Shown here: piece by piece, positions 39,334 to 43,913 of the stretch | How positions within the stretch are numbered: the first letter of the stretch is position 1 | Layout of the letters: the number at the start of each line of letters is the position of its first letter | Source: Candidatus Saccharimonadota bacterium | GTDB taxonomy: Bacteria > Patescibacteriota > Saccharimonadia > Saccharimonadales > Saccharimonadaceae | Assembly: GCA_017431955.1 (NCBI GenBank) | Contig: JAFRKC010000003.1 | Span: 3,299 to 67,298 of the forward strand | DNA length: 64,000 nt | Direction of reading: 5' to 3' | Notes under the pieces: model-generated | Seen by the model: the letters and a program-made list of their open reading frames with translations, nothing else | What the model was told of the DNA's origin: nothing | The model's database searches: none | Program-made: the position numbers and the translations under genes

Positions 39334-39880
39334 CGGTGGGGAGCTTCTTTTCAAGGTATTGGAAGAATGTTTCGGAAGTGGTGCTGTCTTTGGCGAGCGG
39401 AGCTTTGCCGTATTTTTTGCGGAAATAATCGTAATCTTCTAGCGGGACCCATTTAACTTCGTCGACTTCGCCATCAGAAAAAGTGAAGTTTTGTTTGTGG
39501 TCGGTATAGTCTGCAACGAAGATAGAGTAGATGCCGATATCGCCCTTAAAACTTACTACAAATTCTAGGTTTTCTTTCCCTAGGTCGTGCACGCCGATTT
39601 CTTCTTTTAGCTCACGGATGCCGGCTTCAGCGAAAGTTTCACCGTAATTAACGTGGCCGCCAACTGAACAATCCCATTTACCTGGATAGCGATCAACTTT
39701 TTCACTACGCTTTTGGAATAGAATTTCAAAGTTGCCGTTATTTACACGATACAGCCAGACAATTGACCCGCCATAGTAATCTCGACCCTCGGCGTGGTTG
39801 CCAAGGTGAGATGGGCGGCCGCCATTTGCTAGCGGCTCGCCGTTTTTACCGTATTCTTGCCAAACCTCTTCGCGGTGCAT
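39314..39880 (-). CDS. NUDIX hydrolase (IPP isomerase-like)
   Basis: LFQKRS...YPGKWD.SVGGH...GETFAEAGIRELKEEIG Nudix box. Confidence 0.9.
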   Translation of the reverse strand: MHREEVWQEYGKNGEPLANGGRPSHLGNHAEGRDYYGGSIVWLYRVNNGNFEILFQKRSEKVDRYPGKWDCSVGGHVNYGETFAEAGIRELKEEIGVHDLGKENLEFVVSFKGDIGIYSIFVADYTDHKQNFTFSDGEVDEVKWVPLEDYDYFRKKYGKAPLAKDSTTSETFFQYLEKKLPTDGNLDK

Positions 39881-40911
39881 TAGGCCTCTTCTTGGTCCTT
39901 GGCTTTGGCGCGAACTTCTTTTTCGATTTTAGCCATAAAGTCTGGTTTTTCTTTAAATAATTTTTTAACGGCTTCGCGACCTTGGCCTATAGTGTCACCG
40001 TTGTATTTGAGAAAGGCGCCGGACTTTTCGATGACGCCAAATTGGACGGCGAGATCTAGAATATCGCCGGTTTTAGAAATGCCTTCATTGTACATGATGT
40101 CGAACTCGGCAGTACGGAATGGTGCAGCAATTTTGTTTTTAACGACTTTAATTTTAGTACGGTTGCCAGAGATATTATCGCCGTCTTTGATTTGGCCGAT
40201 ACGACGAATATCGATGCGGACTGAAGCGTAGAATTTGAGGGCGTTGCCACCGGTGGTGGTTTCTGGGTTGCCGAACATGACACCGATTTTCATACGGATC
40301 TGATTGATGAAGATGACGGTGGCTTTGGATTTGCTGATAATACCAGTGAGCTTGCGCATAGCTTGAGACATCAAGCGAGCCTGGAGGCCCATTTGGGCAT
40401 CGCCCATGTCGCCGTCGATTTCGGCTTGAGGAACGAGGGCAGCGACGGAGTCGACCACGATAAGATCAACTGCGTTGGAACGAACGAGAGTTTCGCAGAT
40501 TTCAAGGGCTTGTTCCCCATTGTCCGGTTGAGAAATCAAGAGATTGCTGGTGTCTACGCCGATACGTTTGGCATAGGCTGGGTCGAGCGCGTGCTCGGCA
40601 TCGATAAAGGCTGCTTGGCCGCCTTGTTTTTGAATTTCGGCAATAGCGTGAAGAGCGAGAGTGGTTTTGCCGGAAGATTCTGGGCCATAGATTTCGATGA
40701 TGCGGCCTTTTGGATAGCCGCCGCCAAGGGCGAGATCAAGAGAAAGAGAGCCAGATGGCAAAAGTTCGACGTCAATTTTTTGCGTGTCGCCGAGTTTCAT
40801 AATTGAGCCATCGCCAAATTGCTTAGTGATTTGGGCGATTGCGAGATCTAGGGCTTGTGATTTGCCGTCAGATTTTTTTGCTGGTTCTGCTGGTGCTGAT
40901 TTTTTGGTCAT
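39880..40911 (-). CDS. recA: Recombinase A
   Basis: [62 protein letters not shown]. Confidence 0.99.
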
Positions 40912-40978
40912 TGTATTACCTTCCTGTTAGTTATTAATATTATACCACATGGGTTGGCTCGAGATTAGCAAGACAAAA

Positions 40979-41011
40979 ACACTGTCGCAAACATAAGCGT
41001 TGCGACAGTGT
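40979..41011 (-). terminator. Hairpin terminator after the LRR gene
   Basis: ACACTGTCGCAA-N9-TTGCGACAGTGT with flanking A runs. Confidence 0.7.
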
Positions 41012-41027
41012 AAAAGGAACAGTATTT

Positions 41028-42377
41028 TTAGCGAGAGAATCGAACTTTGTTGGATTGGCGTTTGACAATTCGCTTGCTGATAACAGCCAAAATTAAGATG
41101 GCTGGCAAGACGACAATAGCGGCATATTTAGCTGCCTCGGCGATGGCGCCAATACCGGTGTTTGGGACCTTGAGCTTGCCGTATTGAATGATGACGTCTT
41201 TTTGGTTCTCGTCTAGACCGAGCATTCCGCGAATTTGTTCTTCGGTGTATTTGCCTTCCCAGGACGCAGGAACGGCAACGATCTTAAGGTTTTTGTTGTT
41301 GTAAAGTTCCCCACTAAAGGATTCGAGATCTTCGCTGGCCTGCGATAAATCAATATATTGAATATCGTTGTCATTGAAGTATGCAAGTGTTAATTTTTCT
41401 TCTGGGTTTTCACTGAAAGTTACTTTAGTTAACTGGTTATAATCAGCTACAACTCTTGTTATTTTTTTGTTATTTGATAAATCTAATTCTTTTAAAGAAT
41501 TTCCCGAGATATACAAGTTGGTTAATTCGGTGAGTTTAGAAACATCAATTTTTGAAAGACCACAATAATCGAGAGAGACGCTCGTAAGCTTTGTATTATT
41601 GGAGAGATCGATATTAGAAAGGATCGTGGATCCTATAGTAAGCATTTCTAGATTTGTATTTTTTGAGAGATCGATTACGGAAATATCGCTGTTATAAAGC
41701 CAAAGTTCGGCGAGATTCTGATTGGCTGAAAAATCTAGAGCTTCATTCTGGACACCAGTTACCGAAAGCCTTTTGAGACCAGTTAGTTTGTCTAGGCTAT
41801 GGATATAGAAGGCTGAATCGTAGTGGCATTGTAGGGTTTCGATCTGAGCAATTTGCGCATCGGTGAGTTGGCTTAGCTCAGTGTCGTAAGCCACGTTATA
41901 ATTCTCGACCATGCATTCTGTAAAGTTGTTTCGAAAAGTTTGCTCGGCGTTATAAATTTGAGTGTACAAACCGCAGCCTGACGTGCCGAGGCTAACTGTA
42001 ACAGTGCCATCGAGAATTTCTGCTGGGGTATTTTGTAGACAAACAATAGGGTTTGTAGTGCTGGTTGGGATCTCAAAAACATATAGGCCACTGGGGGTTT
42101 CCGCTTCTTGATAGCCAGATTCGCATGATTCGTTCGCCTGGACGTAATAAATCGTTTCCGAGTAATGATTCACACAGACTTTGTATTCGTTGTCAGCGTA
42201 GTTGGTGGCTGCTGCGTAGCTTGATGGGGCCACCACTGTTGCAGTTGCACTAGAGCTGTTGGAAACCACCACCTCGGCAGCGAAAGCTGGGGCGGCTAGG
42301 CTTGCGCTAGTGGCAGATAAAACGCCTAAGGTAAGTAGCATTTTGCCGATGCTAATTTTGTGTTTTTGTTGTGTCAT
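41028..42377 (-). CDS. Leucine-rich-repeat (internalin-like) surface protein with VPNTG-TM-basic tail
   Basis: Signal peptide; LDKLTGLKRL, IDLSKNTNLEML, IDLSNNTKLTSV, LDLSNNKKI repeats; KVPNTGIG, TM, KR; start MTQQKH after AAAGGAA. Confidence 0.85.
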   Translation of the reverse strand: MTQQKHKISIGKMLLTLGVLSATSASLAAPAFAAEVVVSNSSSATATVVAPSSYAAATNYADNEYKVCVNHYSETIYYVQANESCESGYQEAETPSGLYVFEIPTSTTNPIVCLQNTPAEILDGTVTVSLGTSGCGLYTQIYNAEQTFRNNFTECMVENYNVAYDTELSQLTDAQIAQIETLQCHYDSAFYIHSLDKLTGLKRLSVTGVQNEALDFSANQNLAELWLYNSDISVIDLSKNTNLEMLTIGSTILSNIDLSNNTKLTSVSLDYCGLSKIDVSKLTELTNLYISGNSLKELDLSNNKKITRVVADYNQLTKVTFSENPEEKLTLAYFNDNDIQYIDLSQASEDLESFSGELYNNKNLKIVAVPASWEGKYTEEQIRGMLGLDENQKDVIIQYGKLKVPNTGIGAIAEAAKYAAIVVLPAILILAVISKRIVKRQSNKVRFSR

Positions 42378-42439
42378 TTTTGTTCCTTTTTTATTTTTAT
42401 TATAATGTCTCAATAATATATGACTTCGCTTATGCCTTT

Positions 42440-42471
42440 AATATACCCCCCCCCCCCATGGATTTTGTCAA
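42440..42471 (-). promoter_or_regulatory. Sigma70 promoter with G12 homopolymer in the spacer (putative phase-variable)
   Basis: TTGACA-aaatccat-G12-TATATT; spacer 20 nt. Confidence 0.7.
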
Positions 42472-42618
42472 GAAAATTGTTATGTTTTTTGTGTAGACTA
42501 GCCGCTTGCAAAAAACTTGCATTTTTGGTAAAATATGCCTAAGGTCTCGTAAGCCTTTGGCTTTCGATCCCTCGCTCGGATTAAATACGAAAACGAGTTT
42601 TTGTATTTATCCTCGCTC

Positions 42619-42693
42619 GGTCTCGTAGTATAACGGTTAGTACATCGGGTTTTCATCCCGACAATAGGAGTTCGACTCTCCTCGAGATCACCA
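42619..42693 (+). tRNA. tRNA-Glu(TTC)
   Basis: GGTCTCG/CGAGATC acceptor, TCGGG-TTTTCAT-CCCGA anticodon arm, CCA. Confidence 0.95.
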
Positions 42694-42908
42694 CACCGGA
42701 GTTGCTGCCATCGCAGGACTCTTTTTTGTTGTAAATAACGGAGAAGAGTGGGCTTAAATCGTCCGTTCCAAAAATTTTCTGTTTTATATCAAAAACTCTA
42801 GCTATTATTCATAGCTAAGCATTAGTCTTCGCTTGAGCTTTTTCCTCACGCTCAAAAGCGTCAGCGATAAGTTGCTGGATCTTCTTTATGTTCATTGCTT
42901 TAATTTTA

Positions 42909-43913
42909 TTACTTTTTGTTAGCTTTTTCAAGTATGAAATTGATTGTGCTTATAAAACCCATCAAGTCCATGTAGTAATTTGGATAAATCTCTCTAATCT
43001 TATTGATCTGGCTAACAGCCACTAATACGGTTTGGCTTGTTCGGGTATTATTTCGTTCACGCAAATTATATTCTTTAAAGGCTAAGTGGTACTCCGTTTC
43101 TTTGAAACCGACGGCATCTACTTTTTTATCTTCGAGGTTTAAAGTTATAACTACATAATAGGCTTTTTTTGCATTTTCGCTATTAACAATTGGATCAGTA
43201 ACTATGTAGCTACCGATTGTTTGGAGTATCTTATTATTAATAATATTATCAACTAGAGTCGAACGAATTTTAGAAAGGCTCAAACCATCATATGCCCTAA
43301 TGACGGGAGTCTCTTCGGCAATTGCGAAAATTGATGAAACTTGGCAGAAAAAATCATGCCAATATGAAGCATCATCTTTTTCTTTTAATGAAGTACCTCG
43401 GAAGGCATCAATGGTTTCGAGTGATGTTGCCCATAAATGTTGCATTTGGGTTCGCAATTGAATCTCAACATACATCTCATCCTTCTCGAAAATGAAATGT
43501 TTCCCACGATAACCACTATCTTTGGGGTTTTGGATATAGTCTTTAGTACGTGCACGTTTAAGGTGCTTCCATCTCAGCAATGACTTCTCGACAACCTTTA
43601 GTTGATTCATATCGTCCACGATAATTCTAACACCAGCAACGTCCTGCATGCTAGAAAGTCTCATATTCTCAAAACGATTCAGTTTGTTAATTATAGTTGG
43701 AAGCCTTTTTAATCTTTGTGCAACAACTATATTATTCTTATTGATTCTTTTGGCCAATCTAACACACTTATCATAATAATTATCAAGGATCTTCCCATGT
43801 GATTCACGCCAAATGTTCAAAACATTTACCGCGTCCTGGTATTTAGGATCCATTTTTTGCTGGCGTATAATGTCACCAACTTTATCTAGTGCGCTATTAG
43901 ACATCTTTTTCAT
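42909..43913 (-). CDS. RelA/SpoT-domain protein (small alarmone synthetase-like nucleotidyltransferase)
   Basis: AQRLKRLPTIINKL, MQDVAGVRII, DYIQNPKDSGYRGKH, VEIQLRTQMQHLWA; AT-rich; leaderless start. Confidence 0.88.
   Translation of the reverse strand: MKKMSNSALDKVGDIIRQQKMDPKYQDAVNVLNIWRESHGKILDNYYDKCVRLAKRINKNNIVVAQRLKRLPTIINKLNRFENMRLSSMQDVAGVRIIVDDMNQLKVVEKSLLRWKHLKRARTKDYIQNPKDSGYRGKHFIFEKDEMYVEIQLRTQMQHLWATSLETIDAFRGTSLKEKDDASYWHDFFCQVSSIFAIAEETPVIRAYDGLSLSKIRSTLVDNIINNKILQTIGSYIVTDPIVNSENAKKAYYVVITLNLEDKKVDAVGFKETEYHLAFKEYNLRERNNTRTSQTVLVAVSQINKIREIYPNYYMDLMGFISTINFILEKANKK

Follow-up and report, generated by a model that had tools for sequence, protein, structure and literature searches.

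The locus studied here raises the question of whether a run of twelve G residues, located in the -35/-10 spacer of a promoter, may work as a reversible expression switch for the surface protein gene that follows. The run lies in a stretch of 64,000 nucleotides, which was analysed as a whole and is hereafter called the window. The plus strand at positions 42440-42471 reads AATATA CCCCCCCCCCCC ATGGATTT TGTCAA, with a C12 run at 42446-42457 that is G12 on the minus strand. On the latter, a perfect consensus -35 hexamer TTGACA (42466..42471) is followed by an 8-nt non-repetitive spacer part recognized by sequence reading, AAATCCAT (42458..42465), by the G12 homopolymer, which is the proposed hypermutable element (42446..42457), and by the -10 hexamer TATATT (42440..42445), which the homopolymer adjoins without a gap. 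The spacer (42465..42446, minus strand) is composed of AAATCCAT plus G12 and measures 20 nt. Reading of the minus strand confirmed in this way the original prediction that TTGACA and TATATT are 20 nt apart and that 12 of these are G. The same prediction considered G12 the longest homopolymer in the window, which it is, the next ones being A/T runs of 8.

The ATG of the downstream gene is at 42377 on the minus strand, and 62 nt separate it from the promoter. The 5' leader (~55 nt, within 42378..42439, minus strand) contains a ribosome binding site, AAGGAA, at 42388..42383. A second TATAAT is found on the same strand 21 nt 5' of the ATG (42404..42399) and could be a weak proximal promoter. It has no -35 box, as no TTGACA-like hexamer was present 16-18 nt 5' of it, and no TG extension either. 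On the other side, the plus strand carries a divergent promoter-like sequence, TTGCAA-N17-TAAAAT (42506-42534), which lies ahead of tRNA-Glu(UUC) (42619-42693), a conserved synteny landmark; the whole neighbouring feature spans 42506..42693. Two other roles for the tracts were considered and rejected. One was that G12 could serve the divergent tRNA-Glu promoter as an upstream element, which was dismissed because the run is located ~84-95 nt upstream of the expected start. The other was a known RNA element covering the tracts, which was dismissed because the Rfam matches nearby were tRNAs, RNase P RNA and the 16S end only.

The gene controlled by this promoter (41028..42377, minus strand, defined by its translation) has an intact ORF of 449 aa. 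The translated protein starts with a signal-peptide-like N-terminus, which is followed by leucine-rich repeats (LRRs) of ~21 residues and by a C-terminal VPNTG, a hydrophobic stretch and a KRIVKRQ tail. VPNTG, the hydrophobic segment and the K/R tail form a predicted sortase-type sorting signal, with a motif that departs from LPXTG, and the genome has two sortase-like ORFs with TLxTC motifs (TLITC and TLSTC). The protein matched LRR_4 in Pfam (E 3.9e-9), and its closest solved structure was that of Listeria internalin J (InlJ; 3bz5, E 4.1e-24, residues ~230-347). The NCBIfam internalin_J model gave 58 bits, far under its cut-off of 1700. Judged from these matches, the protein is similar to InlJ in its LRRs, yet it is not an InlJ equivalog. 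With the class 1 internalins of Listeria it would share a predicted signal peptide, ~21-residue LRRs and a putative C-terminal cell-wall sorting signal; unlike InlJ, it has VPNTG instead of LPXTG and an unrelated N-terminal region of ~200 residues. The prediction that the gene product is an LRR surface protein was supported by the signal-peptide-like start, the LRRs and the putative sortase-type anchor read from its sequence. The terms "adhesin" for this protein and "CPR epibiont" for the organism, CPR being the Candidate Phyla Radiation, describe what we infer about them.

We have searched for the LRR gene and its promoter in other genomes. Four full-length homologues of the protein were present in public assemblies, with 34-49% identity, and the gene order tRNA-Glu / LRR gene / recA was found in three other assemblies (L065, L067 and L068), in which the proteins were 35-49% identical. 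The position of the LRR gene upstream of recA was confirmed in at least two homologous loci, and L065, L067 and L068 all displayed, upstream of the LRR gene, the antisense tRNA-Glu with its own conserved promoter. No orthologue of the protein was detected among 40 relatives, and a search of the genome contigs with the LRR protein returned a single Alistipes LRR match, which was discarded as unrelated. The contigs that were located via the neighbouring RelA/SpoT-like protein stop at the tRNA, short of the tract. The slot of the LRR gene, from tRNA-Glu to recA (39880-42377 in the window), is conserved, and most congeners gave no match to the gene. Because identity is 35-49% in a conserved slot and most congeners lack a match, the LRR gene would seem either to evolve very fast or to be replaced in a fixed location.

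The syntenic LRR promoters read TTGACA-N17-TACCAT, TTGACA-N17-TACAAT and TTGACA-N18-TATGAT, and a G run was present in none of them. When aligned with the window, L065 and L067 had their -35 and -10 boxes in register with it, their TTGACA occupying the columns of the window TTGACA and their TACCAT/TACAAT those of TATATT, with the window spacer being 3 bases longer. For L068, the automatic alignment left the -35 and -10 boxes out of register. The distal -35 and -10 boxes are kept in the orthologous leaders, and the proximal TATAAT (42404..42399) is not. We take TTGACA-N8-G12-TATATT, as read from these alignments, to be the real promoter of the LRR gene. Since the syntenic promoters are free of tracts and of the N17 type, the ancestral promoter would have had a normal 17-nt spacer, whose 3' half has turned into a G run here.

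The spacing rule was derived from the 713-kb genome itself, by recording the gap, within 10-26 nt, between each perfect TTGACA and a TA[TA]A[ACT]T downstream of it. The gap was of 17 nt in 35 of 53 cases, of 18 nt in four and of 16 nt in two, whereas reversed sequence, used as control for the peak in gap length, gave a flat distribution. The 20-nt and 23-nt gap classes were mainly made of G-tract promoters. It had been proposed that contraction to G9 would give an optimal spacer of 17 nt, and the sharp peak of the genome's own promoters at 17 nt confirmed this value.

We have then compared the length of the tract between samples, using the metagenome-assembled genome (MAG), ENA assemblies and Logan contigs of X1-X4, four runs of one gut-metagenome study that carry the strain. 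At the LRR promoter, the MAG, run X1 (SRR12529035) and the ENA assembly ERZ27256819 have a tract of G12, and runs X2 and X3 one of G11; the X4 contig ends within the tract. The 12/12/12/11/11 lengths, which are those of consensus contigs from one study, whose samples may be non-independent populations and where the Illumina consensus of G12-G14 may err by one, were accompanied by 0 substitutions over 1101 nt (41900-43000, strain's own contigs). None of the 19 shorter homopolymers taken as control (A/T of 6-7 and G/C of 5; 3805 bases compared) varied. Hence, the variation in tract length between samples that was expected from the original prediction was observed (12 vs. 11, with identical flanks), and a fixed length was not. 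The lengths come from assembler contigs, whose breaks at the tracts hint at length heterogeneity within a sample. A scan of JGI metagenome contigs for the exact flanks of the LRR promoter, with any tract length in between, produced no match. Considering their names (of the type "XIEF21-1_SAMN158299xx"), the samples appear to come from the survey of ruminant guts by Xie et al. 2021, in which PCR-free libraries were sequenced on NovaSeq (PMC8199421). The observed G11 and G12 alleles correspond to spacers of 19-20 nt, with a 17-18 nt allele not being among the assemblies seen. Because every observed allele gives a 19-20 nt spacer, expression of the LRR gene is probably low or off.

The G12 run is one of a small number of long G/C tracts. 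The counts of G/C runs in the 713-kb genome drop ~6-fold per base down to a single 7-mer, and are followed by runs of 9, 10, 10, 10, 12, 14 and 14, whereas A/T runs end at 8-9 in the same genome, which is 58% A+T. Seven G/C runs of at least 9 were observed for 0.14-1.3 expected, and three of at least 12 for 0.0006 (extrapolation of run-length decay) or 0.0125 (first-order Markov) expected. No other class of simple sequence repeats (SSRs) was enriched in the genome. The scan thus added six tracts to the G12 run, two of them in promoter spacers and two in the starts of surface-protein genes, so that the seven contexts are three promoter spacers, two surface-gene starts, one PhoH-like gene and one terminator-like hairpin. 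Three tracts are linked to surface proteins: one lies in the LRR promoter, and two beta-helix-like paralogues each have one in their coding sequence. Long SSRs in this genome are over-represented and tied to surface genes, as in Moxon-type contingency loci. As a separate observation, TA directly follows the run in six of the seven G/C runs of at least 9.

Each of the three promoter-spacer tracts has a perfect TTGACA and a G run touching a TAnnnT box, with spacers of 18-23 nt. The tract at C4:816 (L002:801-835) has a G14 run in a 23-nt spacer (TTGACA-N-G14-TAAACT) right after a terminator hairpin, and precedes a 92-aa ORF, a gene for a SpoU-type RNA methyltransferase and a polysaccharide-deacetylase-like gene with a TFDDGP motif. 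Its length was 14 in the MAG, 13 in X3 and ERZ28655079, and 12 in SRR12529396, and the contigs of X1, X2 and X4 break at it. An ENA scaffold from another sample starts with C48 (L058:1-48) exactly at this tract; this start is an artefact of assembly or of two-colour chemistry, and such tracts derail assemblers. The tract at C6:13923 (L006:2418-2449, minus strand) has a G14 run in a 20-nt spacer (TTGACA-N-G14-TAAACT), right after the RNase P RNA terminator; the ORF that comes next encodes 66 aa and matched no family. Its length was 14 in the MAG and X1, and 12 in X2, X3, ERZ28655079 and SRR12529042, where the SRR12529042 and X2 contigs are probably the same data because both are 2067 nt long. 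The 92-aa and 66-aa proteins had neither a signal peptide nor a Pfam match. Located right after intrinsic terminators, the C4:816 and C6:13923 promoters are the sole promoter candidates for their genes.

The two tracts in surface-gene starts are a coding G9 in codons 10-13 of a surface-protein paralogue of 449 aa (G000 C4:103300-103308; L004:1001-1009) and a coding G10 in the same codons of another paralogue (G000 C2:71323-71332; L001:1824-1833), just past the end of the window. Both proteins have an N-terminus of the form MS..TKLSSRGG, a signal peptide and a C-terminal PNT[IL]D with a transmembrane anchor. Their match to Pfam was weak (Cthe_2159), one Pfam search of a beta-helix-like paralogue giving nothing. 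The paralogue coding tract is in frame as G9, whereas G10 leads to a stop after 15 codons. At C4:103300, G9 with its 449-aa ORF was found in the MAG and in three assemblies, and G10 in X1-X4; the 2550-nt flank was 100% identical between the three G9 contigs compared. In-frame and out-of-frame alleles of a single intragenic tract therefore both occur in nature. At C2:71323, all the assemblies seen had the out-of-frame G10. Two more paralogues, at C4:74736 and C4:75995, have no tract. Right 3' of the C2 paralogue, a 130-aa gene (L053:1977-2369) matched Pfam CdiA_C (PF18451), a C-terminal domain of contact-dependent-inhibition toxins.

In the PhoH-like gene, a C10 run encoding Pro (G000 C4:54981-54990; L003:1982-1991) is placed between a 260-aa N-terminal domain and the PhoH ATPase domain (Pfam E 2e-35). 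The assembled C10 truncates the product, and C9 or C12 would restore one protein of 478-479 aa. This PhoH2-type cytoplasmic protein may be phase variable and not the product of a pseudogene, as far as its reading frames indicate. When such genomes are annotated, the frameshifted copies of the surface-protein and PhoH-like genes should probably be read as phase-OFF alleles and not as pseudogenes. The last tract, a G10 (G000 C4:158281-158290; L005:982-991), lies upstream of rpmE, between this gene and one labelled ClpP-like from a reading of its C-terminal sequence. It is the 5' arm of a terminator-like hairpin, pairing with a downstream C5 that is followed by a T-rich tail (z = -1.6), with five of the ten G's being surplus to the stem. 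As a hairpin arm, it was not counted as a switch.

The same promoter design was found across the genus. Of 25 genomes belonging to the genus, 12 contained the pattern TTGACA-N3-12-G9+; it was absent from all 16 genomes taken from other genera in the order, and its reversed-pattern control gave 0 matches. The 15 distinct sites have G runs of 9-17, which are mostly followed directly by TATAAT, TATATT, TAATAT, TAAACT, TACACT or TATGCT. The longer the non-G part, the shorter the G run tended to be (r = -0.67, permutation p = 0.004), a test that is weakened and a p-value that is optimistic because some of the 15 sites may be orthologous. The total spacer measured 19.0 ± 1.9 nt, with a variance of 3.6 vs. 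10.2 expected if the two parts were independent; at a few sites these counts are approximate, since the -10 box there is offset by 1-3 nt. With the two parts offsetting each other in length, the total spacing appears to be under constraint. By reading of the translations, 10 of the 14 assessable genes located 3' of G-tract promoters encode secreted or anchored products. The products include a papain-like protease, a GNAT and two small proteins, and sorting signals of the xPN[TS]G or PDTG type were read in several; Pfam searches with several of these downstream proteins of relatives returned no match.

We have also looked for mismatch repair in the genome carrying the tract. With the Escherichia coli MutS and MutL as queries, tblastn gave best E values of 1.2-9.7 and phmmer retrieved nothing at E ≤1, and the signature motifs of both proteins were absent from the genome. 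Ribosomal protein L30 gave no match either, the S5 and L15 genes being adjacent (C4:85905-86411) with no room between them. Absence of L30 was reportedly described by Brown and colleagues in 2015 as a trait of CPR bacteria. Assignment to a CPR-type taxon is supported by the 0.71-Mb genome size at 98% completeness and by the lack of L30, MutS and MutL.

We consider it likely that G12 is a slippage-prone repeat in the spacer of the true LRR promoter, acting as a reversible expression switch. Replication slippage would add or remove G's, and these changes would be left uncorrected with no MutS/MutL. Each change would shift the spacer, G9 corresponding to the 17-nt optimum and G11-G12 to 19-20 nt, and the spacer length would set the contact of RNA polymerase with both boxes. 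Because a change in spacer would alter this contact, lineages could switch heritably and reversibly among high, low and no expression, with G9-G10 expected to give high expression and G11-G12 low or none. The reversibility of the device, its effect on transcription and the selection that would maintain it are parts that we infer. Its benefit could be a varied surface toward the bacterial host, phages or host immunity. The LRR locus would then belong to a small contingency set, comprising three poly-G spacers, two poly-G first-codon tracts and one poly-C tract in the PhoH-like gene. Both the mean spacer in the genus and the alleles seen here exceed 17 nt by 1-3 nt. This excess may mean that the loci are mostly OFF, as in many contingency systems; alternatively, the geometry of oligo(dG) may shift the effective optimum, or small errors may affect the consensus lengths obtained for long G runs.

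Other explanations of the G run were weighed against this switch. The run could be a neutral by-product of lost mismatch repair, that is, a hypermutable run in a decaying promoter whose length changes have no selected role. We find this unlikely, even if MutS and MutL are absent and if G11/G12, as well as most G-tract promoters of the genus, exceed the 17-nt optimum. Under neutral decay A/T runs should expand too, yet they end at 8-9 in a 58% A+T genome, while the long runs are of G/C only and either directly adjoin a -10 box that has a perfect TTGACA ahead of it or occupy codons 10-13 of secreted proteins. The compensation in length between the non-G spacer and the G run, the intact 449-aa LRR ORF, and a paralogue coding tract seen both in and out of frame argue in the same direction. 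A sequencing or assembly artefact, in which the tract would have one fixed length and 11 vs. 12 would be an Illumina homopolymer error, appears very improbable to us: differences of 2 (14 vs. 12) agree across several samples, G9/G10 at a short and easily sequenced tract splits four assemblies from four runs, and every assembly, as well as 12 congeners, has the tract itself. In addition, the libraries were PCR-free if the samples are those of the Xie et al. 2021 study (PMC8199421). In favour of such an artefact, two-colour Illumina sequencing is prone to errors in long poly-G, the tracts are places where contigs break, one scaffold opens with C48, and the lengths were read from consensus contigs.

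The tract could also be truly variable while mattering little, if the LRR gene were mainly transcribed from the proximal TATAAT or by read-through from the RelA/SpoT-like gene. The perfect TATAAT 21 nt 5' of the ATG would suit this, as would the fact that no minus-strand terminator was detected between the RelA/SpoT-like gene and the promoter (42909 to 42472). However, the proximal TATAAT has no -35 box or TG extension and is not conserved, whereas the distal boxes are, and the two other G-tract promoters are the only candidates for their genes, after intrinsic terminators. We thus hold such a source of transcription to be highly improbable. Oligo(dG) tracts have an unusual helical geometry, and the run could in principle be a protein-binding or structural element, such as a site for a regulator or a stiff, A-form-like spacer that suits an alternative sigma factor, with no stochastic switching. 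The G run always adjoins the -10 box, the mean spacer is 19 and not 17 nt, and a G at -14 makes up one half of the TG motif in an extended -10, all of which would fit. A binding site would nevertheless keep its length, while here lengths of 9 to 17 occur within the genus and even identical strains differ in length, and the orthologous promoters do without any G run; we see hardly any chance that this explanation holds. The slippage-driven switch is thus the reading that we retain.

The mechanism is a known one, since the layout is that of porA/opc/fetA, TP0126/tpr and vlp, and the genome signature is that of the Campylobacter and Helicobacter phasomes. In Neisseria meningitidis, a homopolymer between -35 and -10, poly-G in porA and poly-C in opc and fetA, determines through its length the spacing of the boxes and with it the level of expression (PMC2791445, citing Sarkari 1994 and van der Ende 1995). 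These promoters share with the present one an unstable homopolymer in the spacer of a surface-protein gene, with similar lengths (~9-14). They differ in phylum and envelope, and porA encodes an outer-membrane porin where a sortase-anchored LRR protein is predicted here. Compared with Neisseria, the G run here adjoins the -10 box, its lengths are 2-3 nt above the optimum, MutS/MutL are absent, and the switch is deduced from DNA sequence. In Treponema pallidum, Giacani and colleagues are said to have found in 2007 and 2015 that a longer poly-G in the promoters of TP0126 and of subfamily II tpr genes lowers transcription. This species also has poly-G at promoters of surface genes and is a small-genome, uncultivable, host-associated bacterium; its tract lengths vary within and between strains, and here they vary between samples. 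Unlike the putative epibiont of gut bacteria considered here, T. pallidum is a spirochaete pathogen, and the genes are unrelated.

The vlp genes of Mycoplasma hyorhinis reportedly have a poly-A in the promoter spacer, as described by Yogev and colleagues in 1991. The resemblance lies in a tiny, repair-poor genome with surface genes that carry a homopolymer in the -35/-10 spacer; each vlp gene having its own tract, surface variation becomes combinatorial. In contrast with the poly-A and lipoproteins of that species, poly-G and putative sortase substrates are found here, alongside coding tracts. The Vlp system is also cited in PMC11868660. Regarding the genome signature, Campylobacter jejuni NCTC11168 has 29 G/C tracts of at least 7 (PMC4965091), and a survey of the genus is available (PMC6321876). 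The Campylobacter and Helicobacter phasomes have in common with the present genome the bimodal lengths of G/C runs, the involvement of surface-structure genes, frameshift ON/OFF switching and the lack of functional MutS/MutL. Their tracts are mostly intragenic, unlike here, where 3 of 7 are in promoter spacers, and the loci here are far fewer (seven) in a far smaller genome (0.71 Mb).

The novelty lies in the lineage and in the target, namely an internalin-like protein, predicted to be sortase-anchored, of a putative epibiont. Saccharibacteria, like other CPR bacteria, have few regulators and spend their life attached to other bacteria. To our knowledge, how they choose or change host and how they escape phages and immunity is largely unknown. 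Our full-text literature search retrieved no paper linking Saccharibacteria, Patescibacteria or CPR with simple-sequence phase variation; a Saccharibacteria paper using phase-variation terms concerns the host and the phages of Saccharibacteria. If surface proteins carry mutational switches, a "clonal" epibiont population would be a mixture of surface types, and this would bear on how host range, co-culture success and strain-level metagenomics are interpreted. The seven tracts with their predicted ON lengths provide concrete handles that can be tested. A wider and more tentative proposal, which we put forward as possible and would not yet favour, is that this MutS/MutL-less genus of the ruminant gut runs a complete contingency-locus system, in which poly-G promoter "dimmers" and frameshift switches in signal-peptide codons would shuffle the surface coat as bet-hedging for host attachment and against phages and immunity. 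The PhoH-like ATPase and the operon of the SpoU-type methyltransferase and polysaccharide deacetylase would also be controlled, possibly in a phasevarion-like manner. If so, this would be the first contingency-locus system described in the Candidate Phyla Radiation, with a surface coat composed of the internalin-like LRR protein and the beta-helix-like paralogues.

A further observation concerns the leaders of these genes. A short leader, (GC)ATAAAGGT(C/T)A, starts a few bases 3' of the -10 box in several surface-protein genes. It was located at 42412-42439 (minus strand) in the window, where the copy reads GCATAAGCGAAGTCA, at ~933-942 in L004, at C4:74707, C3:18280 and C2:39764 in G000, and at ~142-153 in L065, being kept in this genome and in relatives. 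The (GC)ATAAAGGT(C/T)A sequence could represent an initial transcribed or leader element common to these genes, or it may be a sign of whole promoter-leader cassettes copied between surface genes.
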